Below, piece by piece: positions 6,878 through 52,598 of a stretch of 64,000 nucleotides of DNA. The stretch is taken from NCBI GenBank assembly GCA_045803545.1, contig JBJMOW010000004.1:1009189-1073188 (forward strand), written 5' to 3'. The notes under the pieces were generated by a model. It was not told where the DNA came from. It worked only from the letters and a program-made list of their open reading frames with translations, and made no database searches. Within the stretch, counting starts at the first letter, position 1. Each line of letters opens with the position of its first letter. Source of the stretch: Gemmatimonadaceae bacterium (GTDB lineage Bacteria; Gemmatimonadota; Gemmatimonadetes; Gemmatimonadales; Gemmatimonadaceae). The translations under genes and the position numbers were made by a program.

Positions 6878-6881
6878 CTGA

Positions 6882-7622: not shown

Positions 7623-7626
7623 GACG

Positions 7627-11892: not shown

Positions 11893-11919
11893 GAAGAATG
11901 TATATATACACAGCCTTCG
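11892..11919. promoter_or_regulatory. Palindromic operator-like element abutting the GNAT start codon
   Basis: CGAAG-aa-TGTATATATACA-cagc-CTTCG. The central 12-bp palindrome is perfect (11899-11910) and the outer 5-bp arms are complementary. It contains a TATATA hexamer 11 nt upstream of the GTG start on the minus strand. Confidence 0.35.
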
Positions 11920-11955
11920 TGGCGCAAGAGTTTGAGGGAGGACTTGGACTGATAA

Positions 11956-12128
11956 CTACCGCGCTCGTAGCTGATAGCAGCAGGCTGTTAGCTGATGGCT
12001 GCCTGCAACCAGACAGATCCCATAGAATAAAAGCGAGCAGAACGCTGTGCCTCTACGTTGTCGCGATCTGTCCCGTCGCCTGCAGCGAATAGCTATTAGC
12101 TAGCTGCTATCAGCTACCCGCGAGGTAG
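11956..12128. repeat. Imperfect 26-bp terminal inverted repeats enclosing 121 bp (MITE/REP-like)
   Basis: Compare CTACCgcgctcgTAGCTGATAGCAGC (11956-11981) with the reverse complement of 12103-12128, CTACCtcgcggGTAGCTGATAGCAGC. There are additional inner GCTGTTAGCTGA / TAGCTATTAGCTAGC repeats. Confidence 0.6.
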
Positions 12129-12150
12129 TGCGCTTTCAATGTCCGCGGTC

Positions 12151-13151: not shown

Positions 13152-13178
13152 GTTTCTAATGTAGTCATGGGGCTTGGC

Positions 13179-13200
13179 TTCGGGTTATATTCGGTATATA
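13179..13200 (+). promoter_or_regulatory. Candidate operator/promoter, site 2 (TTCGGGTTATATTCGGTATATA), between the DinB-family gene and imuB
   Basis: Same TTCGG-N6-TTCGG architecture as 6155-6175, with an embedded TATAAT (13196-13201). It lies in the 74-bp divergent intergenic region. Confidence 0.45.
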
Positions 13201-13225
13201 ATTGATCCCCCCGCTTCGCTCTGCA

Positions 13226-14596: not shown

Positions 14597-14762
14597 TTAC
14601 TCAGAACTGCGCGCTGCTAGCCAACGAATCAGTCCCAGCTGCGAGCTAAGACCGAAATTCGAACCTATTGCGAGTTAAGAGCAAACGCTCCATCCAAGCT
14701 CGTACCTCGCACTGGGCTCGCAAATCGGACTCAGATCGCACCTCGGATTCACCCGTATTGCA

Positions 14763-16784
14763 ATGAAGCGTCTCCTCCTACTTCTGCTTCTTACAGTTCC
14801 CAGCGTCGCGAGCGTCGCGAGCGCTCGGGTTGTTCGTGTAGAGATTCTTTCTCGCTCCCCAATCTCCGGCGCCTTCGATGGCAGAACGTACGAGCGCATA
14901 ACAGGCCGCGTGTACTTCGCCTTCGATCCCAACAATACCGAGAACAAAAAAATCGTCGACCTCGCCCTCGCTCCGCGTAACGCCACGGGCGAAGTCGAAG
15001 CCATCAGCGAGTTCGTCATGCTGAAGCCAATCGGCTCCGCACAGTCGGCGAACGTCGCTGTGATCGACATCGTGAATCGCGGCGGCATCACTCATTTCAT
15101 CTTCAATCTCGGCCGCAAACCCCAGGCGGCGCCGGAATCGGGCGAGTTCTACGGCGATGCATTGCTGATGAAACGTGGTGTCACCATCGTCGCACTCGGC
15201 TGGCAATGGGATGTTCAACCAGGCGGATCGGCGCTTCACTTCCAGGCACCGCCCGTTGGTTCAGCAGCAAATCCGATAACGGGTCTCGTTCGCAGTGACA
15301 TCACTGTCGATGCGCCGACGAGCTCGATTCCACTCGGACACAGCCTCGCCACCGGAGCACTCGCGTATCCTGTCGCCGATCCTGACGATCCAGCCAATGC
15401 TCTCACGGTTCGCGACTCGCCCACCGGCACTCGCTCCATTGTGCCACACAGCCGTTGGCGTTTCGGACGCGAAGCGAACGGCCAGGTCATTGATGATCCG
15501 CGCTCAGTGTACATGGCGAGCGGCTTCCAGCCGGGAAAGATCTATGAAGTGGTTTATCGCGGCCGCGATCCGGTAGTCGTTGGCGCCGGCCTCGCCGCAG
15601 TGCGCGACATGATTTCCTATCTCAAGTACGACCCCAGCTCCATCGCGCCGGTCCAATACGGTATCGGCTACGGCGTCTCGCAGACGGGACGATTCATTCG
15701 CCACTTCCTCTATCAGGGATTCAACGCCGACGAAAACGGGCGAGCGGCGTTCGACGGATTTTTCGTGCACACCGCCGGCGCCGGTCGCGGCAGTTTCAAT
15801 CATCGTTTCGCGCAGCCATCCCGTGACGCGCAGCCGTACTCGACGTTTTTCTATCCGACCGACGTTTTCCCTTTCACCACTCTGCCGACCCGCGACCCGG
15901 TAACCGGTCAGCGCGCCGGCCTCCGCGACAACCTTGCCGGGTCGGAGGAGACGAAAGTTTTTTACGTTGATGGCGGACATGAGTACTGGGGACGTGCCGC
16001 ATCCCTGACGCATACGACTCCCGACGGCACACGCGACGTCGGCTTTTTGCCGACGGAGCGGCGTTACGTTATTTCGTCGGCGCAGCACTCCAGCCCAGCC
16101 GGGTGGCCATTGCCTGATTCGGATCGCATCGCCGGCACCATTGCCTACCGAGGCGATCCACTCGATCAGCGTCTGGCGCTGCGCGCGCTGATGTCCGCTC
16201 TGATCGACTGGGTGACCATGGCGAAAGAGCCGCCCGCGTCGCGCTACCCAACGCTCGCCTCACACACCCTGGTCGCCCCACAGGCTCAGACATTTCCTCG
16301 CATACCTGATCTCTCCGTCGCCCGAATTCCTCATCAGGTCTACAGGATGGATTTCGGTCCGCGCTGGAATCAGGGAATAGTCGATCTGGAGCCGCCAAAG
16401 CTGGGCGCACATTACCCGATTTTGGTGTCGCGTGTCGATTCGATTGGCAACGACGTCGGCGGAATTCGCAGCGTCGAGATCGCAGTACCCCTCGCTACTT
16501 ACTACCCTTGGCTGCTGCGCACCGGGATGCCGGCAGGGACCGACCGCCTCGTCAGCTTCCGCGGGACCTTCGTACCACTGCAGAAAACTGAAGCTGTGCG
16601 ACGGAAAAGCGGCGACTCTCGCCCAAGCATCGAGACGTTGTACGGTGACAAGACTCGATTCATGGGCAGGGTCAATGCAGCGATCTCTTCGTTGATCGCG
16701 CAGCGCTTCATGCTGCCAGAGGATGCTGTCGTCGCCCGAGCGCGAATGTCCGACGTCTGGGATCGCTTCGGACCCGCGAAGTAG
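14763..16784 (+). CDS. Secreted protein of unknown function (possibly alpha/beta-hydrolase-like)
   Basis: 673 aa. Signal peptide is MKRLLLLLLLTVPSVASVASA. A segment GYGVSQTGRFIRHFLYQGFN resembles a nucleophile-elbow-like GxSxxG. The family assignment is from memory only. Confidence 0.55.
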   Translation: MKRLLLLLLLTVPSVASVASARVVRVEILSRSPISGAFDGRTYERITGRVYFAFDPNNTENKKIVDLALAPRNATGEVEAISEFVMLKPIGSAQSANVAVIDIVNRGGITHFIFNLGRKPQAAPESGEFYGDALLMKRGVTIVALGWQWDVQPGGSALHFQAPPVGSAANPITGLVRSDITVDAPTSSIPLGHSLATGALAYPVADPDDPANALTVRDSPTGTRSIVPHSRWRFGREANGQVIDDPRSVYMASGFQPGKIYEVVYRGRDPVVVGAGLAAVRDMISYLKYDPSSIAPVQYGIGYGVSQTGRFIRHFLYQGFNADENGRAAFDGFFVHTAGAGRGSFNHRFAQPSRDAQPYSTFFYPTDVFPFTTLPTRDPVTGQRAGLRDNLAGSEETKVFYVDGGHEYWGRAASLTHTTPDGTRDVGFLPTERRYVISSAQHSSPAGWPLPDSDRIAGTIAYRGDPLDQRLALRALMSALIDWVTMAKEPPASRYPTLASHTLVAPQAQTFPRIPDLSVARIPHQVYRMDFGPRWNQGIVDLEPPKLGAHYPILVSRVDSIGNDVGGIRSVEIAVPLATYYPWLLRTGMPAGTDRLVSFRGTFVPLQKTEAVRRKSGDSRPSIETLYGDKTRFMGRVNAAISSLIAQRFMLPEDAVVARARMSDVWDRFGPAK

Positions 16785-19055
16785 CTAGCTGACTCCCGGA
16801 AAATCAATGCGGGCGGCCTTCGCGATTGCGCGCACGCGATTCATGATCTTGTCGGCCATCTTCGTGTCCCCCTGATTGCGTACCGCTTCTGCCAGAATGG
16901 CGCCGGTAAACGCGTACGTATAGGGAATGCCGAATGAGGGGCGGTCGATCCAGTCGCCTTCCTTGATCAAAGCTTCCGGCGCTTTGTACACGGTGTCCCA
17001 GAGTTCCTTGGTGCGCTGCACATCGAGATTGAGCCCCGCCGCCACCAGGGGAACCTGCGGGCTGTTCACGACCGGATGATCGACGAGCTTTTGCACAAAC
17101 CCCTGGGTGACCAGGTACGGCTGCAGGAGTGGGCCAAGCGTTGTCCCGCCACCACCTGTCGACACGTAGATCGGCCGCTCGGGGAACGCGTCCTTGATCA
17201 AACGCAAAAATACCAGCTCATCTCGAACGAGATAGCCCTGCGGGATCTCCAGGCTGAGATTGCCCTGTCGGAAAATCTGCGGCTGGGTGATCTGAATGTA
17301 CTCGGGAATCGCGTCCGCTTCGGCGAAAGACATCTTTAGCGGCGGCCCGGACGGCTTCTTCCACTGTTGTCCGCGGAAGATTGCCGGACCCTTGGCCGCA
17401 TCGTACGTCTCGACCGGTCGGCGAATCATCTGTCGCACGAACCAGTCGGTGTCGAGATAAGTCGTGACTGCCACAGTCACATCGCGACGGACTCCTTCAA
17501 CTTCCTGAGCGTACCACAAGGGGAAGGTGTCGTTGTCGCCATTGGTGATGACAATCGCGTATGGCTCGAGTGAGTTGAGATAGTCGGTCGCCCACTCGCG
17601 TGTGAACTGGTGGCCCGAACGCGACGCGTATTTCCAATTGGCGACAAACGGAATCAGCGCGATCAGCAGAATCGGAGCTGCAAGTTTGAACGCGCGCGGC
17701 GACGGCCACGCGAACGAGGCGACCTTGCCCTTACCGGTTTTCTCCTCTACCGCCGCCGGCTCGCGATCGAGAATCTGCGCCAGCTGCTCCCACAGGAAGC
17801 CCAATCCGACCGCCGCCCACACGCCCCACGCCGAGAAGCTCCAGATGTAGAAGTAGTCTCGGTCGCGAACCTCGCGTGCGACGCTATTTCCAAGCTCCGG
17901 CGCCTGCGACCACCCGTACTTGAAGTTCAGATAGTAAACAAGCGCCAGCGTCATCGTGAACATCAGCGGACCGAAATACCAGAACGTTTTTCGATCTCGT
18001 TGCCAATGCACCCATCCACCGAGCAGTCCGAGCCCGAGGAAGACAAAGGCGAGAATGAACTGCAGACCCTGCATCACCTGGTGTGCGTCGCGCAGCCACT
18101 GCCACTTGAAGTACAGCCACCACATTCCGACCTGACTGGTGTAGGGCGCACCTCGCTCGACCTTCTCACCGTACTGAACGCGGTTGATGTTGTCCATCAG
18201 TCGCTTCTCGGTGAGTTTGCTGAACGTGCAGCTCGCTGCGATCTTCGTCTCGCACGCCGTGGGCGCGCCTTCATTGATTGCAGGGAAGTACGCGGCGCGA
18301 ATCGGCTCGAACGCAAAAGTCGTCAGCCCGAGTAGAAGGGCACCGACCGAGGCGAGAATCAGTCTCCAGCGCATCAGCGTGCGCCACTTGGTGGCCAGCA
18401 ACGCCACGCCGGCAGCCGGCAGCGGGAGGAATCCCGCCGGGTGGTTGGCGTACCCGAGTCCGAGCAGGAAGCAGACGAGAACGATGTAGCGATCGGCTTT
18501 GCGCGAGTTGGGCGCTTCGATCCACTCGATTACCAGCCACGACACAATCGTGAAGAACAGCAGCGAGATGGTGTACACCTTCTCGTTCACCACCGACTGA
18601 TTCCAGACGGTGAATGCAGTCGCGCCAATCAACGTCGCCAGACTCGCGATCACCAGGCGCTCCCAGCGCTCGGGAACCCAACGCGCGACGATGCGCTCCG
18701 TAATCAGGAACCAGAGGCCCGCCGAGATTGCGCTCGCCAGCGCAGCCATGATGTTGATCTTCTCGGCGTACGAGACCGGAATCGGCAGCGAAGCAAATGC
18801 GTGACCGAGAATGACGAAGAACGGATTTCCGGGCGGATGCGGAATGCCGAGGACTTTGACGGCAGCCATGTACTCGCCGGTGTCCCACATCGCCACCGAC
18901 GGCGCCAACGTGATCAGGTAAAGAACGAATACGAGACCTGCGGCGATTGCCGCGGGAACGTAAGACGGCCGATAGCCGCTCTCAGCTAGCAGTGTACGCT
19001 TCGGCGCAGGCGCGTAGGTCGCGTTGACCCGGTTCGATGAGACTTGTGTTGCCAT
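16785..19055 (-). CDS. DUF2723 family polytopic membrane protein (glycosyltransferase-C-fold-like)
   Basis: 756 aa. The N-terminal signature is MWDTGEYMAAVKVLGIPHPPGNPFFVILGHAF. It has many TM helices followed by a large soluble C-domain. Confidence 0.85.
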   Translation of the reverse strand: MATQVSSNRVNATYAPAPKRTLLAESGYRPSYVPAAIAAGLVFVLYLITLAPSVAMWDTGEYMAAVKVLGIPHPPGNPFFVILGHAFASLPIPVSYAEKINIMAALASAISAGLWFLITERIVARWVPERWERLVIASLATLIGATAFTVWNQSVVNEKVYTISLLFFTIVSWLVIEWIEAPNSRKADRYIVLVCFLLGLGYANHPAGFLPLPAAGVALLATKWRTLMRWRLILASVGALLLGLTTFAFEPIRAAYFPAINEGAPTACETKIAASCTFSKLTEKRLMDNINRVQYGEKVERGAPYTSQVGMWWLYFKWQWLRDAHQVMQGLQFILAFVFLGLGLLGGWVHWQRDRKTFWYFGPLMFTMTLALVYYLNFKYGWSQAPELGNSVAREVRDRDYFYIWSFSAWGVWAAVGLGFLWEQLAQILDREPAAVEEKTGKGKVASFAWPSPRAFKLAAPILLIALIPFVANWKYASRSGHQFTREWATDYLNSLEPYAIVITNGDNDTFPLWYAQEVEGVRRDVTVAVTTYLDTDWFVRQMIRRPVETYDAAKGPAIFRGQQWKKPSGPPLKMSFAEADAIPEYIQITQPQIFRQGNLSLEIPQGYLVRDELVFLRLIKDAFPERPIYVSTGGGGTTLGPLLQPYLVTQGFVQKLVDHPVVNSPQVPLVAAGLNLDVQRTKELWDTVYKAPEALIKEGDWIDRPSFGIPYTYAFTGAILAEAVRNQGDTKMADKIMNRVRAIAKAARIDFPGVS

Positions 19056-19059
19056 CTAG

Positions 19060-19116
19060 AGTAAGGATTTGCTGTGGAATTCTCGACAGTAAGGATTTGC
19101 TGGTGGAATTCTCGAC
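19060..19116. repeat. Tandem direct repeat, 2 copies of 28/29 bp
   Basis: AGTAAGGATTTGCTGTGGAATTCTCGAC (19060-19087) is followed by AGTAAGGATTTGCTGGTGGAATTCTCGAC (19088-19116). The pair sits immediately upstream of the DUF2723 start codon (19055). Confidence 0.9.
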
Positions 19117-19148
19117 TGAATTTTAGTCACTAAACGTCGGGCGTGCGG

Positions 19149-19670
19149 TCATCGGCACGTAAGCTCGCGACGAGAAATGATCACCCGGGTTACCTGGGAT
19201 GAATTGTGTACGAAACACGCCCGTCCTTTTCTGAAAGTCAGCCCGCGAGCCGGCGTTCCGACACCAATTCCGTTCGACGTACGAAATGCAGGACTCGAGC
19301 TGCCAACGGTCTCGATCAGACTGTCCTTTCCTGCGACGGTGAAGACGATCAATCCGCCGGTTACTGATACTCCGAATACCGGTCCCTGGATCGCTACCGA
19401 TCCAGGGACCTTGATGACTGCCACTCGGCAACGCTGCCGAAGTCGCCTCAGTGGCGTACTCACAGTGACCGGCCCGATGCTGGCCGCAGTGATGAGCACC
19501 CCTGTGGGCTCGAGGCAGGCCTGGTCGCTGATCGCAACCGGATCGCCGTGTGAGAAGACGTCCGGCGAGAGCTTGGCCACGTCGTTTGCCTTCGCCGCCT
19601 CCCCGTCCGTACAGCCCCCAACCGTCGACAGGCCCATAATTACCGTAAGGACTTTCCTATAGCTCGGCAT
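19149..19670 (-). CDS. Putative lipoprotein, unknown function
   Basis: 173 aa with the lipobox-like LSTVGGC near the N-terminus. Its codon usage is more plausible than the overlapping + strand ORF 19177..19662. Confidence 0.45.
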   Translation of the reverse strand: MPSYRKVLTVIMGLSTVGGCTDGEAAKANDVAKLSPDVFSHGDPVAISDQACLEPTGVLITAASIGPVTVSTPLRRLRQRCRVAVIKVPGSVAIQGPVFGVSVTGGLIVFTVAGKDSLIETVGSSSPAFRTSNGIGVGTPARGLTFRKGRACFVHNSSQVTRVIISRRELTCR

Positions 19671-19764
19671 CGCCCCCCAACTCGCAGACCCCGCGCCGAG
19701 AACCGCGCCGCTGGCCCCGGACCGGCGGGCACTAGTCGCTGCAAGTCGTTTTCAGTTGACGGTT

Positions 19765-19786
19765 TTCGGTATATATTCGGGTATGG
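19765..19786 (+). promoter_or_regulatory. Candidate operator/promoter, site 3 (TTCGGTATATATTCGGGTATGG), at the dnaE2 start
   Basis: Same architecture as sites 1 and 2. The TATATA hexamer ends 7 nt before ATG 19783, so the second half-site overlaps the start codon. This is compatible with a leaderless mRNA. Confidence 0.45.
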
Positions 19787-22700
19787 GATTTGTTGAGCTT
19801 CGTGCCCATACCGCCTTTTCGTTCGGCGACGGCGGCACCTCACCCGAGGCGCTTGCTGCCCGTGCTGCATCACTCGGCTACCGTGCGCTGGGCATAACCG
19901 ATACGGCCGATCTGGGCGGCATCGTTCGATTTTGTCTGGAAGCGAGACGAGTCGGGCTGAAAGCGATTGTTGGCGCCGAGCTCAATATCGATGGCTGTCC
20001 CGTCGCCTTTCTGGCGCAGAACAAAACCGGGTTCAACAACATCGCCTCGCTTGTAACGAGGTCGCGAGTTGGCGAGCTATCGACGTGGCAGAAAGGAGAC
20101 GGCAAGAAAACGCGGGGTCGGCCGCGACTATCGTGGCAACAGGTAGCTGAGCGGAGCGAAGGAGTGCAGGTGCTGACCGGCCCGCTCACGGGTCCGGTCG
20201 CATCTCACCTCCGCAACGGCGAGTATCGTGAAGCGGAACACACGCTGTGCCGGTGGCGATCCGTTTTTGGTGAGCGACTCGCCGTCGAAGTGCAGCTGCA
20301 TCACGCCAGCGGTACCGAAGCCGCGCTCGGTGCTGCCTTGATCGAGCTGGCCGAGCGACACAACGTGCCGTGGGTCATCTGCCACGAGCCGCGCTACATC
20401 GACAACGGCACGCGACTCGTCCACGATGTTCTGACATCGCTGCGCTACGATGCGACCATCGACGACGCTGTCGCGCGCGGACTACTACATCCAAATGGTG
20501 AGTGGCGTCTCGTCTCGGCCGAGGAGATGGGTCAGCGATGGAAAGGTCGCGAGCAAGGACTCGAGGAGAGTGAGCGCATCGCCGACGAGTGCGATTTCAA
20601 TCTCTCATGGGTTCGTCCGCCTCTGCCAAAGTTTCCTGTTCCGCCCGGTTACGACGACGACACCTTCCTGCACGAGAAAGCTTTCGAGGGTGCGCGTGAG
20701 CGTTGGGGCGAACTCGACCAAAAGCAAATCGATCAGCTGAACCACGAGCTGCGGGTGATCGGTAATCTCGGCTTCGCGGGATTTTTCCTCGTGATGTGGG
20801 ACGCGGTGCATTTCGCCAAGTCGAAAGGGATTCTCTGCCAGGGTCGCGGCAGCGCCGCCAACTCGGCGGTGGCTTATTGTCTCGCGATCACGGCGGTAGA
20901 TCCGGTTCGGCATGGTCTGCTGTTCGAGCGATTTCTCTCGGAGATCCGCGTCGATGGGCAGACTGAAGCGCCGGACATCGATGTCGACATCGAGCACGAT
21001 CGCCGAGAGGAAGTGCTCGACTATGTCTATGGGAAGTACAATCGCGCGCAGGCGGCGATCACCTGCGTCGTGCAGATGTACCGCGGGCCGAATGCAATTC
21101 GCGATTCAATGCGCGCCTTCGGTTATCCGGTGGAGATGGCGAACAACATCTCCAAGCGCATCCATTGGAGCGATCCTGCCGAAGGGGCGAAGTACGTGGA
21201 GCAGGAGCTCGCGCCAAAGCTCGGCATCGATTTCGACAATCCGCGTGGACGTGCGACGCTGGCAGCGATGGCAGCGTTCGAAGGAGTGCCGCGTCTGCGC
21301 TCGACGCACGTCGGTGGCTTCGTACTCTCGTCTGCTCTGCTCGGCGATTACATGCCCGTCGAGCACACGACGATGGGTCGCACAATCATCCAGTTCGACA
21401 AAGATGATCTCGATGCGGTCGGAGTTCCCAAGTTCGATTTTCTGGGACTCGGTGCGCTGTCGCTGGTGAGACGCGCGTTCGACATGATCGAGGTACGCAC
21501 GGGAACGCGGCCGGAGATGTACAGGCTGCCGCCCGACGATGAGAAAACCTACGAGCTGATCGCGAGCGGTGAGACGATTGGCACCTTCCAGATCGAGAGT
21601 CGAGCGCAGATCGCTTCAGTGTTGCACACGAAGCCCGATCGGTTATACGACATCGTCGTGCAGGTGGCGCTGATTCGTCCCGGTCCGATCCAGGCAAACT
21701 TCGTCCATCCATATACTGCGCGCCGTCGCGGACTCGAGCCGGTGACGTATCAGCATCCCGATCTGGAGCCGATTCTCAAGAGGACGCAGGGCATTCCGAT
21801 TTTCCAGGAGCAGGCGATGGCGATCGCGATGAAGCTCGGTGGTTACTCGGCGGCTCAGGCCGACGAGCTGCGCCGCACCATGGGACACATCAGAAAAGTC
21901 GAGAAACTGCACCGCGTGCTCGAACAGCTCCGACAGCGCATGGTTGAGCGCGGAGTCACTGAAGATGTCGCGACCAGGATCGCCGAGGATCTAAAGAGCT
22001 TCGCGAATTATGGATTCCCGGAGTCGCACGCCTGGAGCTTCGCACTGATCGCTTACGCGACGGGTTATCTCAAGGCTCACTATACGGCGGAGTTCTACGC
22101 CGGATTGCTGAATTCTTATCCGATGGGATTCTATCCGCCGTCGACATTGATACATGATGCTCGCCGCCACGGTTTACAAGTCTTGCCGCCTTGCATGCGC
22201 GATGGCGACTGGGAATGCACCACCGAGCCGACTGACAATCCTGACCGCCCCGCGCTCAGAATCGGCTGGCGCCACATCCGCGGACTCGGCGAGAAATCAC
22301 TCGACGCGCTCAAGGCAGCGAGAGGGTGGGATCGATTCTCTTCGATCGACGATGTCATCGACAGAGCAAAGCTCCAGCGCACTGATGCACTGCAGCTGGC
22401 GCGCGCCGGCGCTTTCGCGTGCTGGGAGCCTGATCGACGTCGCGCGGCATGGGTGGCAATGCGGGCGGTGGGAGATTGTCTACCGCTGGCGCCGGCGCGT
22501 CATGTACCGTACGAGCCGCGTCCGCTGACGCGAGACGAGCTGATCTTCCTCGACTATTTCTCGGTCGGCATCAGCGTCAGCGGGCATCCCATGGAGCATC
22601 TGCGCGACGAGCTGCGCGGCAAGGGCGTACTCGATTCCAAACAGCTACTGAAGCTGAAGGGCGGGGAATGGATCAAGACTGCCGGCCTCGTCACCATCCG

Positions 22701-44944: not shown

Positions 44945-45000
44945 GCGGGAAGCGGGAAGCGGGAAGCGGGATGGAGATTGAGGATTAGAGGATTGGGGAT
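44945..45000. repeat. GGGAAGC x3.5 array (canonical G3N4 quadruplex motif) followed by GAGGATT-type heptamers
   Basis: GCGGGAAGCGGGAAGCGGGAAGCGGG (44945-44970) is followed by atGGAGATTGAGGATTAGAGGATTGGGGAT. Confidence 0.85.
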
Positions 45001-45020: not shown

Positions 45021-46454
45021 CTGACTAAGAAACCAACGCATTACCACCTGATCGGGATCGCTGGTACGGCGATGGCGTCGCTGGCGGGGCTGCTGAAAGC
45101 CGCCGGACATAAAGTCACCGGGTCCGACGAGAACGTTTACCCGCCCATGTCAACCAACCTGGAGCGCATGGGGATCACCTACGCTCAGGGTTACAAGCCG
45201 GAGAACCTTTCACCGGCGCCTGACATCGTCGTGGTCGGCAATGTCATCTCGCGCGGGAATCCGGAGCTGGAAGAGGTGCTGATCCGGAAGCTGCGTTACA
45301 CGTCAGCGGCTGCCACGATCAAAGAAGAATTCATATGGGGTCATCACTGCCTGGCGGTGGCGGGGACGCATGGCAAAACGACCACGACTTCGTTGCTGGC
45401 GTGGCTGCTGGAGTCGGCCGGACTCAACCCGAGCTTTCTGATTGGCGGTGTAGCTGAGAACTTCGGCACATCCTATCGACTCACGGGCTCGCGTTACTTC
45501 GTTATTGAAGCCGACGAGTACGACACGGCGTACTTCGACAAGGGTCCGAAGATGTGGCACTACCTGCCGGACACCGCGATCGTCAACAACATCGAATACG
45601 ATCACGCCGACATCTATCGCGACGAGGAGGCGTACAAGTTCGCCTTCGCGCGCTTCATCAATCTCGTTCCGAAGAACGGCGTGGTGATCGCTGGCTGGGA
45701 CTCGCCAATCGTGCGAGAGCTTGCTCCCAAATCGCCGGCGCCTGTGCAGTCTTTTGCGTATGGGGATGACACAGTGACGTCGCAGGATGCGCAAGCACAT
45801 TGGCACGCGCGCGATGTCGAGTTCGACGAGAGCGGCACCCGGTTCCGCGCTTTCAAGTCGACGGAAGAGTGGGGAAGAGTCGAGACACCTCTCGCGGGCG
45901 CGTTCAACGTGCGCAACGCGCTGGCAGTCATAGCGGCCGCGGAATCAGTGAAAGCCGATCGCGATGGTGTGCGTCAGGGATTCAAGACCTTCGCGAGTGT
46001 GAAGCGACGGATGGAAGTCCGTGGTGAAGTTCGCGGCGTGACAGTGATCGACGATTTCGCGCATCATCCGACAGCGATCCGGGAGACGATCGACGCGGTG
46101 CGACAGAAGTACAAAGGGCGGCGAATCGTTGCCATCTACGAGCCGAGGAGCTACACCGCGCAGCGGCGGGAATTTCAGGACGACTATGCGCGCGCCTTCG
46201 CTGGTGCGGAGGAGATTATTTTCGCGTCGTTGTATCGGCCGGATCGGTACACGAAAGAGACTGCGCTGGATCTCGGAAAGCTCGTTCGGGATCTGAGCAC
46301 TAACGGCAAAACCGCAAAAGAGCTCAAGGATGCTGACACGATCGTGCGTGATCTTGCTCCGCGCGCACGTGAGCGTGATGTGGTGTTGATCATGTCGAAT
46401 GGCGGATTTGGCGGGATCCACCAGAAACTTCTCGACGCGCTCGGAGCTCGCTGA
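45021..46454 (+). CDS. mpl: UDP-N-acetylmuramate:L-Ala-gamma-D-Glu-meso-DAP ligase (murein peptide ligase), probable CTG start
   Basis: HYHLIGIAGTAMASLA...GSDENVYPPMS, GTHGKTTTTS and EADEYDTAYFDK parallel E. coli Mpl as I recall it. The first ATG (45072) lies inside the N-terminal Rossmann GxxGxxM motif. Upstream, the frame has only CTG 45021, preceded by GAGAGGA. Confidence 0.85.
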   Translation: MTKKPTHYHLIGIAGTAMASLAGLLKAAGHKVTGSDENVYPPMSTNLERMGITYAQGYKPENLSPAPDIVVVGNVISRGNPELEEVLIRKLRYTSAAATIKEEFIWGHHCLAVAGTHGKTTTTSLLAWLLESAGLNPSFLIGGVAENFGTSYRLTGSRYFVIEADEYDTAYFDKGPKMWHYLPDTAIVNNIEYDHADIYRDEEAYKFAFARFINLVPKNGVVIAGWDSPIVRELAPKSPAPVQSFAYGDDTVTSQDAQAHWHARDVEFDESGTRFRAFKSTEEWGRVETPLAGAFNVRNALAVIAAAESVKADRDGVRQGFKTFASVKRRMEVRGEVRGVTVIDDFAHHPTAIRETIDAVRQKYKGRRIVAIYEPRSYTAQRREFQDDYARAFAGAEEIIFASLYRPDRYTKETALDLGKLVRDLSTNGKTAKELKDADTIVRDLAPRARERDVVLIMSNGGFGGIHQKLLDALGAR

Positions 46455-46457
46455 CGG

Positions 46458-47048
46458 CTACTCTGGGCTGATCTTTCGGCGCGGCACAATCGGGGTAAGG
46501 CGGGCTGATCCCGTTTTTGCGACGATTCCGAGTTTAAGAATGGTGTTCCAGTTCCGGCCGGTTCCCCGTCCCAGTCTCTTCTCGAGAACCGAGTGGGTGA
46601 GCTTCGATCGGCCCTGGCCGTCCGGGAAATAAATGTAGGCGTGCTTGCCCTTGGCGCGTACGACTTCGCGGCCGCGGATGTCGCCTTGCAGCGCGACGAT
46701 GTCGGCCACGTCCGGCTCGCTCTTCAGGAACATCACTACGAGATGCCCCGAATCCTTCTCGGCTTCTTTGCGGAAAGGATTCTGGCGGATGATGGCCTTC
46801 CACTCATCCGGCGTCCGCACGATGAAATCGGCTTCGAGCGACAACCGATCGAGGGCTTCGCTCTCGAGAAAACGCTCGAGCTCGGAGCCAGTTCTAACCT
46901 TGCTCTCGAAGACGAGGTTACCGCTCTGAAGCAGCGACCGGACGTTCTCCATGCCGAGCGCCGCCAGGAAATTTCGAAGATCGGTCATCCCGACCTGACG
47001 ATGGCCGCCGACGTTGATGCCGCGGACGAGAGCGATATGGGTTGTCAG
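46458..47048 (-). CDS. DUF1697 family protein, probable CTG start
   Basis: The family signature IALVRGINVGGHRQV is encoded upstream of the first ATG (46988). CTG 47048 lies 2 codons after an in-frame TAG and gives (M)TTHIALVRGINVGG, a typical DUF1697 N-terminus. Confidence 0.8.
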   Translation of the reverse strand: MTTHIALVRGINVGGHRQVGMTDLRNFLAALGMENVRSLLQSGNLVFESKVRTGSELERFLESEALDRLSLEADFIVRTPDEWKAIIRQNPFRKEAEKDSGHLVVMFLKSEPDVADIVALQGDIRGREVVRAKGKHAYIYFPDGQGRSKLTHSVLEKRLGRGTGRNWNTILKLGIVAKTGSARLTPIVPRRKISPE

Positions 47049-47098: not shown

Positions 47099-47297
47099 CC
47101 GGCGGGAGGCGGGAAGCGGGAAGCGGGAAGCGGGAAGCGAGAAGGAGGGCGCGAGAGGCGGGAGGCGAGAGGCGGGAGGAGGATGCATTCGCCTCGCCCT
47201 GTCTTCACCGCGCTTCGCTTCCCGCTTCCCGTTTCCCGCCCGCTTCCCGCTTCCCGCCTCCCGCTTCCCGCTTCCCGCTTCCCGCTTCCCGCTTCCC
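47099..47297. repeat. Large inverted pair of heptamer arrays (about 12 units per arm) around a 28-nt spacer
   Basis: The left arm (47099-47183) is GGCGGGAGGC(GGGAAGC)x4...GAGAGGCGGGAGGCGAGAGGCGGGAGG. The right arm (47211-47297) is its C-rich complement, (CTTCCCG)n. The right arm supplies the last roughly 30 codons (GKREAGS repeats) of ORF 47205..48524. Confidence 0.9.
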
Positions 47298-48524
47298 ACT
47301 CCTATATGGGCGCTCCCACTCGCGCAGATGATCCAGCAGGTAGTCGAGCGAGAAGACGTGCCGTGAGTTGTCGGCCTTGCGGCGGAAGATCACGCGTGAC
47401 CAGCCGCGCATCCCCGTCGGGGTGTACCACTCGCCGTTCATGTGCAGCTTGTCGCCATTGATGGCGCGTATCAGTACGCGTTCGTACTGCGACCGCGGAA
47501 GCACGCGTTCGGGGAAAAGGTTGTCCCACGTGCAGAGGCGTCCGACGTCCTCGTACCCCGCCGGCCGATCGTCGAGATCCAGCAGTGATGGAGCGCGCCC
47601 TTTCATCACCGAGCCAATCAGCCTCAGGGTAAACGGGTCGGAGAAGCGGCGGATGTACGGCCAGAAGTGTTTCGTGATCCGACCGGCCATCTCGCGCAAC
47701 GTCATGAAACGGCCGTCGGTCGTTGGCCATTTGTCGGTGTCAATGTCGCTGATGAACGGGTTTTCGGGATAGCAATCGAAACGGGCCAGCCATCCTTTGC
47801 GCGTCGTGTGCGGCATTGGACGGAATCCACGAATCACCGGAATGTCGGTGTCGTCAAGCGCGCTGATTTCGTAACTTGGCCACCGCATCACTTCCCGCAC
47901 AATCCCGACGATCAGGGTCGCTGTTGCAATCATGAGCGGTGCGTCGGGAGTGAAGTCGGCAGTGACCTCGATGCGATCGCCGCGCGGCCGCACCCCGATT
48001 CCCGTCGAACGCCGGTTCGCCGCGAGCAGCATCACCGGAATCGGCAGGATGTGCGCGAGCAGATAAGCCAACTGCTCGACGGTGCGCGTCGTCCCCTGCT
48101 CGTACTTCGGCAGCTCGAACGAGATGTTGTAGTGGGTGCTGAAGCCGGCGAGCTGGACGTCGGTGTCGTGTGCCTGCTCCCAGGCATCGAGCTCCTGACG
48201 CACGAACAGAATCGCTTCCCATAGCGAGCGCCCGGCACGCGCGGCGCAGCCACGCTCGATCTCGATCACTGGCGTCGCCACTTCGATCACGCCCGTATCG
48301 AAATACACGGCACCGCCAGTTGGCAGGTGATACGACCGTCCTTTGCGGTGCATCATCTTCTCGCGGATGATCCTGCGCGGGCTGCCGAAGAGATCCTCAG
48401 GCTTCACCTGCACGCCGTCCTGGATCACCGCGAATTCGGCTTCCATGCCGATTGCGGCGAGCTGGATACGCTCGTGCGTGGATGATTTGTTCTCGGGACC
48501 TTTCTTTTTCTTCAGCTCGGTCAT
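47205..48524 (-). CDS. Distant PafA/Dop / glutamine-synthetase-fold carboxylate-amine ligase-like protein
   Basis: 439 aa. GMEAEFAV parallels the GIETEFG strand of PafA. GGAVYFDTGVIEVATPV parallels GARLYLDVGSHPEYATAE. GFSTHYNISF parallels YGCHENYLI. The order and spacing of the three motifs are as in PafA (about 450 aa), compared from memory. The C-terminal tail is encoded by the heptamer repeat. Confidence 0.5.
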   Translation of the reverse strand: MTELKKKKGPENKSSTHERIQLAAIGMEAEFAVIQDGVQVKPEDLFGSPRRIIREKMMHRKGRSYHLPTGGAVYFDTGVIEVATPVIEIERGCAARAGRSLWEAILFVRQELDAWEQAHDTDVQLAGFSTHYNISFELPKYEQGTTRTVEQLAYLLAHILPIPVMLLAANRRSTGIGVRPRGDRIEVTADFTPDAPLMIATATLIVGIVREVMRWPSYEISALDDTDIPVIRGFRPMPHTTRKGWLARFDCYPENPFISDIDTDKWPTTDGRFMTLREMAGRITKHFWPYIRRFSDPFTLRLIGSVMKGRAPSLLDLDDRPAGYEDVGRLCTWDNLFPERVLPRSQYERVLIRAINGDKLHMNGEWYTPTGMRGWSRVIFRRKADNSRHVFSLDYLLDHLREWERPYRSGKREAGSGKREAGGGKREAGGKREAGSEAR

Positions 48525-48581
48525 TCTGCCTTCTTACCCAAAGTGCTTCACTCTTTCTGACTCTTTTTCGGGACGATTCCG

Positions 48582-49208
48582 TCAACTTTTAACGTCCCTC
48601 GGCACTGAGATGACGTATCCCAGGTCGAGGTGTAGATGATCCTCCGCGTAGCCCGTAGGTGTTCCGTAGGGACGCGTCCAAACTCCAGGTAGCGTCTCCC
48701 GCGCGATCAGGCTGAAGCGCTCGATCGCACTTCGGTTGTCCAGGTAAGCGTCGCCAATGCGATAGATATTGGCGGCGGTTCCCCAGGCGTGCGGAGTCGC
48801 ATTCTTGGAGAACCGATGGGAAGGCGACCGATAGCCGCCATTCGCTGAAATGTGAACCAGCGTCCCAACAGCCTCCCGGAACCTCTCCAGACACACTGCA
48901 AGGAGGGTTATTGCGCACGGAACGTACCGGGGGAATGTGCGTAAAGGCGCGGCTTCCCGGACGTCGACCTGTATGAACTCCCAAAGCAGGAAGTGCGTGG
49001 AGAGCTCTACCTTCATCGCCGAGTCCCACGAGGGCACCTCGTAAAAATACCGGGGCAGCTGCCGGGAAAACCCGGTTCCGTCCTTCCATTCCTCCCCCGG
49101 TCTCAAGGCTTTACGGTACTCAGGCGGCAGGGTCAGGCCGTCAACGACCCGAAGGGGGAAGTTGGGGGACTCATGTCTGGCCTCAGCGAAGCTCGACGGA
49201 GCGCTCAT
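48582..49208 (-). CDS. Peptidase M15 (VanY / Peptidase_M15_3-like) fold protein with a variant metal motif, no signal peptide
   Basis: Shows NGGYRSPSHR, then HAWGTAAN (H-x6-N where the family has H-x6-D), then the distal DHLHLD. 208 aa. Confidence 0.7.
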   Translation of the reverse strand: MSAPSSFAEARHESPNFPLRVVDGLTLPPEYRKALRPGEEWKDGTGFSRQLPRYFYEVPSWDSAMKVELSTHFLLWEFIQVDVREAAPLRTFPRYVPCAITLLAVCLERFREAVGTLVHISANGGYRSPSHRFSKNATPHAWGTAANIYRIGDAYLDNRSAIERFSLIARETLPGVWTRPYGTPTGYAEDHLHLDLGYVISVPRDVKS

Positions 49209-50107
49209 TCGTCGGGTGGGCCTTTGGTGAGGGCTTCATAGATAGCGTGTGAGATGGTGGCGATGGTCCGCGACCGACCCGATGTGTTCGGATCCCATTC
49301 CGTAAGAATCACCAGCGCGTAAGGTTTGCGCTTGGGCAGGTAGATCACTCCGGCGTCGTGGGCGACGGTGGAAATCTCGCCGGTCTTGTGCGCAACCCGG
49401 GTGCCTTTGGGCAGGCGTGCCGGGATCCCCTGATTGAATTCCTGCCCGTGCATGATGTCCATCATCCGCCGAGACAAAGCCGGTGAGAAGGCTTTTCCCG
49501 CCGCCAGCATGACGAGAATTCTGAGCAGCCCATTGGCGGTGACGCGGTTATTGATCCCTTTCTCGAACGCGAGCTCGTCCTCGACACCGCGTTTGAGGTC
49601 GATGCCTTGCTCGAGATGCAGCTCGTGCAGGGTCTCGTTGACCGACTGTGGTCCGATGACGCCGAGCACCAGGTTGGTGGCGAGATTGCTCGACGTCGTG
49701 ATCATGTGGTAAGCGAGCTCGTCGACGCGCATCATCTTGCCGATGGCGTTGTGGACGGCTGAATTCGCGTCGCGGCCGGACTCGACGCGGAAAGGAATAT
49801 CTTCGACGACGCTGAGGAACCGGTTGCGGACGTGGACGCGTGAGTGTGGCAACAAATCGCCCCGGTCAATGGCGGCGAAGACGCCGAGCAGGATCGGTAC
49901 CTTGATGGTGCTGGCCGCGTGGAACCAGCGATCGTCGTGGTAATGCAGCTCGAAGCCAGTCTCGAAATCGTGCAGCGCGACGGCGATCGCCTTGGCGCCC
50001 GACTCCCTGGCGATCTTTTCGATCTGGTTCTCGAGGGCGGACTCACTGGGCGCGGCGGCGCTCACACCGGCTGAATGTGCCGGAGATGTTGTTTCCTTGC
50101 TGGTCAT
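49205..50107 (-). CDS. Class-A beta-lactamase-related serine hydrolase, no signal peptide
   Basis: SxxK = STIK, SxN = SSN, KTG = HKTGE. 300 aa. ATGA overlap with the M15 gene. Confidence 0.8.
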   Translation of the reverse strand: MTSKETTSPAHSAGVSAAAPSESALENQIEKIARESGAKAIAVALHDFETGFELHYHDDRWFHAASTIKVPILLGVFAAIDRGDLLPHSRVHVRNRFLSVVEDIPFRVESGRDANSAVHNAIGKMMRVDELAYHMITTSSNLATNLVLGVIGPQSVNETLHELHLEQGIDLKRGVEDELAFEKGINNRVTANGLLRILVMLAAGKAFSPALSRRMMDIMHGQEFNQGIPARLPKGTRVAHKTGEISTVAHDAGVIYLPKRKPYALVILTEWDPNTSGRSRTIATISHAIYEALTKGPPDE

Positions 50108-50114
50108 CTACCGC

Positions 50115-51035
50115 TTATGAATACGCTACGCGCGGGTCGGCTTTGGCGTAGGCGAGATCGGTGAGGAGGTTCACCATCACAAACACAACGCTGAGAAAAA
50201 GCACCGAGCCCTGAATGGCGGGCAAGTCCCGTCGCGTGATGGCATTGACGACGTAGCGGCCAAGTCCGGGCCAGCTGAAGATCGTTTCGGTGAGAATGCT
50301 TCCCGTCAGGTAGTATCCGAAATCGAGACCGAGGACGGTGATGATCGGAATGAGTGCGTTGCGGAGTGCGTGGCGCACTATGACGGCGCGTTCCTTCAAT
50401 CCTTTCGCGCGCGCGGTTCGCACAAAGTCTCCGCCGAGTACATCCAGCATCGCCGATCGGGTGACTCGCGCGAGGAACGCGATCGAGCGCGAGCCAAGCG
50501 CGAACGCAGGGAGAATCAGATACTTGATTCCGCCGTAGCCGGATGGCGGCAGCCAGCGCAGCATCACCGCGAAGATCAGAATCAGAATCAGCCCGACCCA
50601 ATACACAGGGAAAGAGATTCCGAGATAGGCGATGCCGAGACCCAGTCGGTCGAACCAGCCACCTGGAGCCCGGGCACTGAGAACGCCGAGTGTAATACCG
50701 AGAATAGAAGCGAGCAGCATCGCCGATCCGGCGAGAAGCAGCGTTTTCGGGAATCGCTCGAGAATGTCGCGAATGATCGGGCGTTGTGTGATGTACGAGT
50801 TGCCCAGATTACCGCGCACCACGCCGCCCGCGTACAGTGCGAACTGCTTGAGCCGGGGCTCGTCGAGGTGCAGATCTTTTCTCAAACGCGCGATCGTCGC
50901 CGAATCGGCGCGCTCGCCCACCATCTCGGTTACCGGATCACCCGGTGCGACATTGAGCAAAAGAAATGTCACTACCAGCACCCCGAACAGGGTCGGGATG
51001 GCGAGTAGAAGTCGGCGGACGATGAATGCGAGCAC
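50115..51035 (-). CDS. Peptide/nickel ABC transporter permease (DppB/OppB type)
   Basis: 306 aa with 6 TM helices. The EAA-loop region is RTARAKGLKERAVIVRHALRNALIPIIT. Confidence 0.9.
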   Translation of the reverse strand: MLAFIVRRLLLAIPTLFGVLVVTFLLLNVAPGDPVTEMVGERADSATIARLRKDLHLDEPRLKQFALYAGGVVRGNLGNSYITQRPIIRDILERFPKTLLLAGSAMLLASILGITLGVLSARAPGGWFDRLGLGIAYLGISFPVYWVGLILILIFAVMLRWLPPSGYGGIKYLILPAFALGSRSIAFLARVTRSAMLDVLGGDFVRTARAKGLKERAVIVRHALRNALIPIITVLGLDFGYYLTGSILTETIFSWPGLGRYVVNAITRRDLPAIQGSVLFLSVVFVMVNLLTDLAYAKADPRVAYS

Positions 51036-51038
51036 GCC

Positions 51039-52598
51039 CTACTTGCTGATCGTCACGTCAGTCCAACGCTGACCGCTGAACACTGCCGGCACGGCGAAGC
51101 CGTGAATCCAGGGCTGAATGGCGTACATATCCTTGTAGAAAAACAGATACGCCATCGGTGCGTCGGCGAATTGAAGCGAATCCGCCTGCGCGTACAATGC
51201 GTTTCGCTTTGACTCGTCCTGCTCGCGGTGCGCCTGATCCACCAGCGCGTCGAATTTGGGATTCGAGTAGAAGGAGACGTTGCCGCCGGGCCCTTTGTTC
51301 TTGCTGTGCAACAGCGGGAACAGGAAGTTCTCCGCGTCGGGATAATCTGCCCACCATTCCTTGACGTAGAGATCGGCGGCTCCTTTGCGCGCTGCCTCGC
51401 GCACCGACGATGCGTCGCGCTGCACGATCTTCGCGCGGATGCCGGCTTCGGCGAGATTGGCCTGAATTGCCTGCGACAGTCGTGGGGACTGGTCGGTCGT
51501 GGCCGCCCAGAGCTCGACGTCGATGCCATTGGGGTGTCCGGCGGCGGTGAGAAGCTGTTTGGCTTTGGCGACGTCGTGCCCATATGGTTTGCGATTGGCG
51601 TCGTAGCCGGGGAGAGTTGGCGGAACGACGCCGTTGGCAACGGCACCGCGGCCGGCCATGACTGCGCTCAGGATGGTGTTGACATCGATTGCGTAGTTCA
51701 GCGCCTGTCGCACGCGAACATCGGCGAGGGGACCGCGAGTGGTGTTGATCGCGACATACCAGAAGCGAAGCGCGGGAGCGGACTGCAACAGCTTGCTCTT
51801 GTCGGGATCCGCCTGCCACGACTTCCCTGTCTCATCCGGTACGGTCAACACATCGACGTTGCCGGCCTCGAACTCGGCGGTGGCTGTGCTCATCTCGGGA
51901 ATGATGCGCGCCATCAGCGAGTCGCTCTTGGGCAGTCCGTCGAAGTAGTTCGGATTCTTTGCAAACTTGAGGTAATCGTCGTGTTTCCATTCGACGAACT
52001 TCCACGGGCCGGTCCCAATTGGCTTCTGGCCGAAGTCGCTGCCGGCGTTGTCAGGCACGATGGAGTTTACCGGCATTGCCAGCATCTTCGGGAAGATCGA
52101 GTAGGGCTCCTTGAGCGTGATCACGACAGTCGTGTCATTTGGCGCGGCGAGGCCGGTTATCGATGATCCCTTCCCGCCGGCGAAATCCTCAGCGCCTTTG
52201 ATCGGAAATAGTGGCCAACCACGCCCGCCCTTCGTCTTAGGGTCGAGGACGCGCTGGAAAGTCGAAACCACATTTTTCGCGGTGAAGTTCGAGCCGTCAT
52301 GGAACTTGACGCCGCTGTGCAGGTGAAACGTGTAAGTGAGGCCGTCAGGTGTCACTTCCCAGGACTTGGCGAGTCCGGGGACGACTTTGGCGTCAGCGGT
52401 AAATCGAGTGAGTCCGTCGAAGATGTACGCCACCGCGCGACCGGTCGGCACGTCCGTCGAGAGTGCCGGGTCCATCGATCGCGGGTCGTAAGTATCGCGC
52501 GAATCGATCAGTGTTTTGCGTTGAGGAGCTGATGATTCACCACCACCGCCACCACAGCTGAGAAGTGCGGGTATTACGAAGAGGATTAGTCGCCGCAT
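51039..52598 (-). CDS. ABC transporter substrate-binding lipoprotein, family 5 (peptide/nickel)
   Basis: The start is set at ATG 52598 (MRRLILFVIPALLSCGGGGG lipobox). Family-5 SBP pattern throughout. Confidence 0.9.
   Translation of the reverse strand: MRRLILFVIPALLSCGGGGGESSAPQRKTLIDSRDTYDPRSMDPALSTDVPTGRAVAYIFDGLTRFTADAKVVPGLAKSWEVTPDGLTYTFHLHSGVKFHDGSNFTAKNVVSTFQRVLDPKTKGGRGWPLFPIKGAEDFAGGKGSSITGLAAPNDTTVVITLKEPYSIFPKMLAMPVNSIVPDNAGSDFGQKPIGTGPWKFVEWKHDDYLKFAKNPNYFDGLPKSDSLMARIIPEMSTATAEFEAGNVDVLTVPDETGKSWQADPDKSKLLQSAPALRFWYVAINTTRGPLADVRVRQALNYAIDVNTILSAVMAGRGAVANGVVPPTLPGYDANRKPYGHDVAKAKQLLTAAGHPNGIDVELWAATTDQSPRLSQAIQANLAEAGIRAKIVQRDASSVREAARKGAADLYVKEWWADYPDAENFLFPLLHSKNKGPGGNVSFYSNPKFDALVDQAHREQDESKRNALYAQADSLQFADAPMAYLFFYKDMYAIQPWIHGFAVPAVFSGQRWTDVTISK

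Follow-up and report, generated by a model that had tools for sequence, protein, structure and literature searches.

The question raised by a 64,000-nucleotide stretch of contig JBJMOW010000004.1 from a Gemmatimonadaceae bacterium (this whole 64-kb stretch is called the window hereafter) is what function unites three adjacent enzyme genes located behind the genes for a peptide-type substrate-binding protein (SBP) and a permease. These three genes, referred to as the trio, encode a serine hydrolase of 300 amino acids (aa) related to class A beta-lactamases, a 208-aa protein weakly resembling M15 peptidases, and a 439-aa protein with the fold of PafA and Dop, called ligase-like below. It is very likely that this cassette is a real functional unit comprising these three enzyme types. 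The best explanation for it, to which we assign a probability of about 0.45, is that of a cytosolic trio for the trimming of murein-type peptides together with ATP-dependent carboxylate-amine ligation or isopeptide hydrolysis. What is new is the association of known folds in a widely conserved combination that includes two unnamed families: for two of the three proteins, the family is large but has neither a Pfam or NCBIfam model nor a characterised member.

Five minus-strand open reading frames (ORFs) were found between positions 52598 and 47205. In transcription order they are:

51039-52598, minus strand: SBP lipoprotein, 519 aa, from an ORF whose start MRRLILFVIPALLSC carries a lipobox
50115-51035, minus strand: permease of DppB/GsiC/NikB type, 306 aa, from ORF and Pfam
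49205-50107, minus strand: trio gene 1, class-A-beta-lactamase-like/PBP-A-like serine hydrolase, 300 aa, from Pfam and PDB matches
48582-49208, minus strand: trio gene 2, weakly M15/LAS-like protein of an unnamed family, 208 aa, from weak sequence matches
47205-48524, minus strand: trio gene 3, PafA/Dop/YbdK-fold protein of an unnamed family, 439 aa, from AlphaFold and Foldseek

The initial annotation of this DNA had reported five same-strand genes separated by gaps of at most 58 nt. The ORF coordinates matched and the successive gaps were 3, 7, -4 and 57 nt, the negative value corresponding to an ATGA overlap between the stop codon of the hydrolase gene and the start codon of the 208-aa protein gene. 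Co-orientation of five genes is ordinary by itself; the evidence for a functional unit came from related loci.

Word-indexed searches performed with the two unnamed families retrieved 3,677 sequences for one of them and at least 4,926 for the other. No Pfam domain had been precomputed for any of these matches, and those bearing a name were all called 'hypothetical'. The source names of near-identical proteins put the window in Gemmatimonadaceae. Despite their size both families are narrow; clustering at 50% identity, over 1.84 billion representatives, left the ligase-like family with only 470 clusters. At least 547 relatives were detected when species-representative genomes were scanned, and the best 80 of them belonged to Gemmatimonadaceae, Gemmatimonadales and Longimicrobium/Longimicrobiaceae, with two additional metagenome-assembled genomes labelled Blastocatellia and Bacteroidetes. 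The order hydrolase, M15-like protein, ligase-like protein and the common strand were kept in all of the 69 Gemmatimonadota loci with at least 1.9 kb of upstream sequence (tblastn, window proteins). Between Gemmatimonadaceae and Longimicrobium the ligase-like protein was ~69% identical, being about as conserved as the product of mpl, a murein tripeptide ligase gene located near the trio.

A second subfamily was sampled from metagenomes. One of its members is named Vicinamibacteria, and the label 'Vicinamibacteria-type' was extended from it to the whole set. Its ligase-like proteins were ~53% identical to that of the window, and the trio was present in 38 of the 44 loci with enough flank. Two further divergent lineages, represented by the ligase-like proteins P0258 in locus L167 and P0253 in locus L169 (identity 44-45%), also had the trio between unrelated flanks. 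Additionally, the isolate Ramlibacter sp. USB13 (Betaproteobacteria, Comamonadaceae) hosted a bare three-gene insert with overlapping stop/start codons and unrelated genes on either side, which suggests mobility of the cassette as a whole. Stop/start codon overlaps were likewise observed within the trio in the window and in loci L001, L086 and L169. Overall, of the 113 loci for which the two bulk scans gave enough flank, 107 had the trio in the same order, and the three single loci come on top of these. This recurrence is far beyond chance, and the trio is a self-contained, probably co-translated cassette. The initial annotation had made its proposal depend on co-conservation of the three genes, and they were indeed kept together across phyla. 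It had also mentioned knowing of no described pathway with this trio. Pfam, NCBIfam, PHROGs and PADLOC gave no assignment to a characterised pathway, and no description of it was found in the literature searched for the trio or related systems.

Which reactions may these enzymes catalyze? The hydrolase matched Pfam family PF13354 (Beta-lactamase2) with 162.8 bits (gathering threshold 22; E 9.4e-48) over profile positions 2-214 of 214, and scored under the NCBIfam cut-off for class A beta-lactamases (NF033103, 114.1 versus 200 bits). By its profile scores it is assigned to Beta-lactamase2 and not to the class A beta-lactamases proper. Its best PDB match was PBP-A Tll2115 (2j7v; E 2.8e-26 over ~290 residues), which was closer than any lactamase of that database. 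The motifs S66-T-I-K69, S139-S-N141 and K241-T-G, as well as E176 of the omega loop, were conserved at 97% or more among 116 homologues, in agreement with the intact SxxK, SxN and KTG noted initially. The enzyme thereby has the complete set of residues for acylation and deacylation. These motifs and the omega-loop Glu are shared with both PBP-A and class A beta-lactamases, but the hydrolase differs from them in being always paired with two other genes and in staying under the class A cut-off. Furthermore, PBP-A acts on peptidoglycan outside the cytoplasm, whereas a hydropathy measure detected no signal peptide in the hydrolase. PBP-A is a DD-carboxy/endopeptidase acting on muropeptides, with a preference for D-iGln-amidated ones (PMC11189452).

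The location of the three enzymes was evaluated from their N-termini, which were not hydrophobic: the maximal Kyte-Doolittle value over 12 residues was 0.86-1.47, compared with 2.76 for the SBP, this being a rough hydropathy measure and not a SignalP prediction. The hydrolase homologues of 278-283 aa begin directly in the mature domain and therefore have no space for a signal peptide. From these sequence features we infer that the three enzymes are cytosolic, and the earlier claim that none of them has a signal peptide was borne out by the hydropathy values.

The 439-aa protein had no match in Pfam (including Pup_ligase and GCS2) or NCBIfam at E values up to 0.1, and none among PDB sequences at E values up to 10, either as a single sequence or as a profile. 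However, its AlphaFold model had a predicted local distance difference test score (pLDDT) of 85.7 and a predicted template modelling score (pTM) of 0.85, and Foldseek matched it to PafA (4bjr, E 3.1e-9), Dop (7oyh, 8.9e-8), a YbdK-like protein (1tt4, 6.5e-6) and YbdK (7.6e-5), all with probability 1.00 and TM-scores of 0.43-0.53. The PafA/glutamine synthetase (GS) fold attributed to this gene at the outset was recovered in this comparison. An hhalign alignment of the family with PafA from C. glutamicum (E 8.4e-4) placed GMEAEF on GIETEY, the GxExE metal-binding strand, and LPTGGAVYFD76TG on IPNGSRLYLDVG, so that D76 came to lie at the catalytic-Asp motif (YFD on YLD). The PafA Asp aligned with D76 is the one that Asn replaces in 4bjr, the complex of PafA with Pup (D-to-N between 4b0t and 4bjr). 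Residues E28, E30, D76, H131, N133, R179, R181, R184, E186 and D190 were invariant in the family (alignment A1).

The fold, the GxExE strand and the Y-x-D motif are shared by the 439-aa protein with the PafA/Dop and YbdK/GCS2 group, and the invariant His, Asn, Arg and Glu residues that come after them may correspond to GS-type metal or phosphate sites. The protein differs from this group by an identity of only ~12%, is shorter than PafA, and carries basic tails or an insert. All homologues displayed a variable, strongly basic (Arg/Lys-rich) and low-complexity C-terminal tail. Vicinamibacteria-type proteins had, instead of or besides this tail, an Arg-rich insert (~150 aa) before the last conserved block. 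Such a tail or insert may serve to bind an acidic partner or the membrane. By its fold and motifs the 439-aa protein belongs to the glutamine-synthetase-like carboxylate-amine ligase superfamily, and it is probably active. Enzymes of this superfamily have been described as gamma-glutamyl-amine ligases (PMC8599861), and Dop is a hydrolase in which a set of reciprocal substitutions abolishes the hydrolase activity and yields an active ligase (PMC7947786). The fold is common to ligases and to the hydrolase Dop, and the direction of the reaction is not readable from it; the ligase role considered for this protein in the initial annotation is consequently not established.

The 208-aa protein of the window had no match in Pfam, NCBIfam or PDB, either as a single sequence or as profile A2, and none to Peptidase_M15_3 (PF08291) even at E values up to 10. 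It did match PHROG 894 'endolysin' (E 7.7e-5), as did relatives with values down to 1.4e-6. PF08291 was detected below its gathering threshold of 23.2 bits in 9 of 30 relatives (best E 0.021), the score for the Ramlibacter homologue being a likewise sub-threshold 12 bits. For a diverse profile of 34 sequences (A6), the only PDB match was the zinc D-Ala-D-Ala carboxypeptidase 1LBU, with a marginal E value of 1.5; the alignment set NGG(Y/F)RS...H140-x6-(N/D)147 over the zinc-site residues H154/D161 of 1LBU (HxxxxxxD motif). Microvirus 'peptidase' genes were matched by tblastn at E values of 0.01-0.5. Every weak match of this protein was to an M15 peptidoglycan peptidase.

Within the family, H140, D190, H193 and D195 were invariant, and H191 was present in 124 of 130 homologues. 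Position 147, which is aligned with the zinc-ligand Asp of LAS peptidases, was Asn in 75 of the 130 homologues, including that of the window, and Asp in 54; the Vicinamibacteria-type members, 51 in number, had Asp without exception, as did L167 and L169. Asn147 represents a phylum-wide change at the presumed metal site of an otherwise highly conserved protein. The motifs F-x-x-x-E-F, NGG(Y/F)RS, H-x6-D and H-x-H-x-D occur in the same order as in M15/LAS peptidases (1LBU, Peptidase_M15_3, phage M15 endolysins, VanX/DdpX, LdcB), but the family differs from these by a conserved N-terminal extension of ~70 aa, by passing no curated threshold and by the replacement of the zinc-ligand Asp with Asn in its Gemmatimonadota members. 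Taken together, the matches and motifs make an M15/LAS-like metallopeptidase plausible.

Next to the five genes, the window contains:

46458-46988, minus strand: DUF1697 gene, between trio gene 3 and mpl
45072-46454, plus strand: mpl (UDP-MurNAc:L-Ala-gamma-D-Glu-meso-diaminopimelate ligase), from TIGR01081; convergent

The DUF1697 gene lies 216 nt beyond gene 3 on the module's own strand. Within the window's close clade, and nowhere else, it followed the ligase-like gene in the majority of loci. The mpl product scored 425.9 bits against TIGR01081 (equivalog cut-off 388.7) and lspA comes after it. The initial annotation had situated mpl 750 bp further on; the distance was right (751 bp), but mpl is convergent on the opposite strand and the DUF1697 gene, which that annotation had passed over, stands in between. 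Upstream of the five genes are divergent Omp85/BamA-like and TamB-like genes, these family names being taken from the syntenic locus L001.

The mpl gene was found within the flank in 24 of the 29 Gemmatimonadota loci having at least 6 kb on each side, as opposed to none of 13 Vicinamibacteria-type loci, and the linkage was not seen outside Gemmatimonadota. It occurred in three arrangements:

convergent downstream of the trio, as in the window
divergent, directly upstream of the hydrolase gene (L052-L064)
0.1-3 kb downstream of the trio (L061, L062, L073, L075)

In Vicinamibacteria-type loci, whose neighbours were named by Pfam searches on cluster representatives, an aminotransferase gene stood directly upstream of the trio and on the same strand in 14 cases, all from one lineage. 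Where the flank reached farther, dapD (7 loci), dapA (5) and dapB (5) were found upstream of the aminotransferase gene. Downstream of the trio were a convergent SLT lytic transglycosylase gene (26 loci) and a gene for an RlpA-like DPBB protein (22 loci). To the same theme belong mpl in Gemmatimonadota, the di/tripeptide-type SBP of the window's clade, and the MepA-like M74 peptidase gene and weak CHAP gene beside the most distant ligase homologue. The informative neighbours all concern peptidoglycan or diaminopimelate (DAP), suggesting a substrate from this part of metabolism. In locus L146 (positions 341-4232), dapB, dapA and dapD were followed by the aminotransferase gene and then by the trio, and nothing resembling dapE appeared in the part of the sequence that was read.

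On these grounds a murein-type peptide can be named, tentatively, as the substrate of the cassette. The substrate class would be D-amino-acid peptides of stem-peptide type (L-Ala-gamma-D-Glu-mDAP-D-Ala-D-Ala, mDAP being meso-DAP). In the window's clade, the SBP and the permease would serve as a clade-specific feeder, and the missing partners of this transporter would have to be encoded elsewhere. By analogy with PBP-A, the serine enzyme would remove, or cleave at, the D-Ala-D-Ala-type end of the peptide, and the LAS-like enzyme could cut a second bond at a D-centre, either L-Ala-D-Glu or DAP-D-Ala, by analogy with M15 peptidases. The GS-fold enzyme would phosphorylate the carboxylate of Glu or DAP with ATP. 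The activated carboxylate might then be transferred to an amine or ammonia (re-tailoring, amidation) or to water, which would amount to a Dop-like cleavage of the gamma-D-Glu-DAP isopeptide bond. Products could be passed to Mpl or to the DAP pool.

Several observations weigh against this explanation. A DD-peptidase in the cytosol would be unusual. The neighbours of the trio in many loci (L077, L078, L081, L086, L167, L169) were not related to the cell wall; such unrelated neighbours included genes for a STAND NTPase, VirJ and PepSY_TM proteins, and genes for efflux, MutS and an M16 peptidase. Since dap genes and mpl each accompany the trio in a single phylum, both links could reflect synteny by descent. 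Six Vicinamibacteria-type loci (L114, L119, L150, L154, L156, L160) had the ligase-like gene without the two peptidase genes upstream, either because the trio was lost or because its two peptidase genes were relocated. Finally, the assignment of the 208-aa protein to M15 is built from sub-threshold matches; position 147 was Asn in 73 of 77 Gemmatimonadota members, including that of the window, and the AlphaFold model was poor (pLDDT 62.6), Foldseek finding nothing at E values below 0.001 in PDB or BFVD with it. The M15-fold peptidase-like nature proposed in the initial annotation thus stood as far as the concordant weak sequence matches go, but neither the model nor the Asn in place of the zinc-ligand Asp lent it support. 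As for the six loci devoid of peptidase genes, their downstream SLT/RlpA synteny was kept, and upstream they had genes for a TPR protein and for a 420-aa protein without Pfam match.

Known systems for cytoplasmic handling of cell wall peptides provide a frame for comparison. The E. coli ddpXABCDF locus combines a D-Ala-D-Ala dipeptidase with a Dpp-type ATP-binding cassette (ABC) importer. In the window's clade, genes for a family-5 SBP and a permease of DppB type similarly form an operon-like unit with the M15-like gene, but the window has a single permease, no ATPases and two enzymes more than the ddp locus, most lineages with the trio have no such transporter, and the 208-aa protein was not of VanX type by any test. 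Recycling of murein peptides in E. coli relies on MppA/Opp, LdcA (family S66), MpaA (family M14) and Mpl. The proximity of mpl to the trio in most Gemmatimonadota loci is a common point, and the trio would, like this system, trim stem peptides in the cytoplasm before their re-use by Mpl or their degradation; in a comparison made from the genes alone, however, class-A-like, LAS-like and GS-fold proteins take the place of the S66 enzyme LdcA and the M14 enzyme MpaA. By analogy, the trio would work most like such sets (ddpXABCDF, LdcA/MpaA/Mpl, VanX/VanY/VanA), and it can be counted in none of the ddp, recycling and Van systems, as its enzymes come from other families and it lacks components by which these systems are defined.

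The transporter genes deserve separate consideration. The SBP matched Pfam SBP_bac_5 (E 9.9e-102), and its best NCBIfam models were GsiB (229 bits) and DppA (210 bits), both far under cut-off. Although its mechanical ORF extends up to a TTG codon at 52772, the start MRRLILFVIPALLSC at 52598 gives 519 aa, compared with 518 aa for the homologue of L001, and makes a hydrophobic N-terminus with a lipobox Cys. The permease matched Pfam BPD_transp_1 (E 3e-42) and BPD_transp_1_N, with NCBIfam scores of 322 bits for Opp2B and 312 bits for GsiC, both under cut-off, and was also near NikB and DppB. Dpp/Opp-type ABC importers comprise an SBP, two permeases and two ATPases; an SBP and one permease were present here, and no ABC ATPase ORF (Walker A plus LSGGQ) and no permease paralogue were found in the whole 64-kb window, which leaves the 306-aa protein as its sole membrane subunit of a transporter. 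The same two-gene arrangement accompanied the trio in 28 of the 45 Gemmatimonadota loci with enough flank, all from the window's Gemmatimonadaceae clade (ligase identity of at least 76%), and is therefore not an assembly artefact. None of 30 Vicinamibacteria-type loci had it, and neither did Ramlibacter, L167 and L169. This pair of genes is a lineage-specific accessory outside the conserved trio. The earlier description of an incomplete peptide ABC importer in front of the enzymes was locally correct, the 64 kb containing neither an ATPase nor a second permease, but the importer is no part of the conserved unit.

Other functions have to be weighed against murein-peptide trimming and ligation or isopeptide hydrolysis. 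The transporter bears directly on nutritional scavenging of the E. coli ddpXABCDF kind, according to which imported D-Ala or gamma-glutamyl peptides would be degraded to amino acids, the GS-fold protein being a Dop-like ATP/Pi-dependent isopeptidase, and nothing would be rebuilt. A Dpp/Gsi-type SBP and a permease are located directly upstream of the trio in the window's clade, and the three enzymes, acting jointly, could break a stem peptide at its DD, LD and gamma bonds. The hydrolase Dop has the fold of the 439-aa protein, and substitutions turn it into a ligase (PMC7947786). This explanation is nevertheless unlikely, since the transporter is absent from most trio-keeping lineages and since the conservation of the ligase-like protein, similar to that of Mpl (~69% identity), fits housekeeping better than optional catabolism.

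Somewhat less likely still is a role in making or modifying a small peptide metabolite with gamma-glutamyl or D-amino-acid residues, or in Pup- or RimK-like tagging of a protein or peptide C-terminus, in which the hydrolases would take care of maturation or editing. PafA was the best structural match of the 439-aa protein, an acidic partner could dock on its basic and disordered tails or inserts, and the most distant ligase homologues were found near nonribosomal peptide synthetase (NRPS) genes or in a DndB/TGT/QueC island. These distant homologues, however, lack the two peptidases and say little about the trio; the 64-kb window had no Pup-like ORF ending in GGQ or GGE, the annotated related loci contained neither proteasome or Mpa genes nor a conserved small ORF, and PADLOC gave no matches. 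Pup-like tagging as the default function was rejected on account of this absence of a Pup-like ORF and of proteasome/Mpa context, in which the surroundings of the 439-aa protein gene differ from the Pup system. Anti-phage defence was discarded as well, the three enzymes and the DUF1697 protein having no PADLOC match at E values up to 0.01.

VanX and VanY are M15 peptidases, and VanA is a ligase. The formal analogy of the trio with these three proteins, and the fact that its hosts live in soil, where they meet glycopeptides and beta-lactams, would be in line with a remodelling of cytoplasmic precursors for intrinsic antibiotic tolerance, with D-Ala-D-Ala ends being removed by a DD-carboxypeptidase and a dipeptidase and an alternative group being installed by the ligase. 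We regard this as improbable: the annotated loci had no VanH/VanA-type genes or VanRS-type regulators beside the trio, the GS fold is not the ATP-grasp fold of D-Ala-D-X ligation, and the near-universal presence of the trio in Gemmatimonadota is at variance with the usually patchy occurrence of resistance genes. Last, adjacency through shared ancestry alone, without any functional unit, has hardly any credit left, for although most loci came from two phyla and synteny could be inherited, gene order, strand and stop/start overlaps were kept between wholly different flanks in Gemmatimonadaceae, Longimicrobium, Vicinamibacteria-type loci, L167, L169 and Ramlibacter, the latter sharing nothing but the three genes.

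If the murein-peptide explanation is true, the LdcA/MpaA-type steps of peptidoglycan recycling would be carried out by the cassette's enzymes, which are unrelated to LdcA and MpaA, and a class-A beta-lactamase-like enzyme would be operating in the cytoplasm, which bears on the diversification of beta-lactamases and penicillin-binding proteins. A bolder proposal, that of a new cytosolic pathway in which a GS-fold enzyme of the PafA/Dop branch acts on a small peptide and not on Pup, forming, amidating or hydrolysing a linkage at a Glu or DAP carboxylate of the murein stem peptide in company with a cytosolic class-A-type DD-peptidase and a LAS peptidase, is doubtful. Should it be correct, it would represent a third, non-homologous solution to salvage or editing of cell wall peptides, and a core trait of Gemmatimonadota and Vicinamibacteria. 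The substrate of the 439-aa protein could widen the known scope of the fold shared by Pup ligase, depupylase and glutamate-cysteine ligase. The cassette is near-universal in the sampled Gemmatimonadota loci and frequent in Vicinamibacteria-type loci; both are abundant soil groups whose cell wall metabolism has, to our knowledge, hardly been studied. The compact and portable unit of the cultured Ramlibacter sp. USB13 makes the question directly testable.

Some additional features were noted among remote relatives and around the cassette. In ligase homologues with 40% identity or less, the two peptidase partners were no longer present. At 40% identity, P0259 of locus L168 (positions 1-9287) ends an island with three DndB-family genes, a TGT-like gene, QueC and PTPS, both peptidases being absent; the island thus resembles gene sets for 7-deazaguanine DNA modification. 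The most distant homologue, P0270 (35% identity; locus L083, positions 8747-19949), is situated beside a Peptidase_M74 gene (MepA-like; 29.6 versus 25 bits), a weak CHAP-domain gene, a phosphopantetheinyl transferase gene and NRPS genes. When profile A2 of the 208-aa protein was compared by hhalign with neighbours of such homologues (the M74-like protein of L083 and a 357-aa protein of L085), no relationship was detected. A plasmid-borne cassette was ruled out, as tblastn against PLSDB returned no match. Consensus scans for promoters and terminators gave sites no commoner than in shuffled sequence.

A last feature concerns the 3' end of the unit:

47101-47297, no strand assigned: inverted heptamer-array pair, from Tandem Repeats Finder (TRF) and RNA folding

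The last ~30 codons of gene 3 contain a (GGGAAGC)n array identified by TRF, which encodes a GKREAG repeat tail. Its reverse complement (GCTTCCC)n is found in the spacer, and the pair makes a long hairpin (RNA folding energy -155 kcal/mol, z -8.85). This region was also considered as a riboswitch or leader RNA, which was rejected, Rfam giving merely sub-threshold matches of miRNA precursors to the long hairpin. The heptamer array also occurs at 44947-44974 and 13472-13492 of the window (14 matches versus 0 expected), and among the 169 loci only L007 and L044, two close relatives, had it, in the same intergenic places. It may be a repetitive extragenic palindromic (REP)-like element that overran the 3' end of gene 3, and its hairpin may be a terminator.

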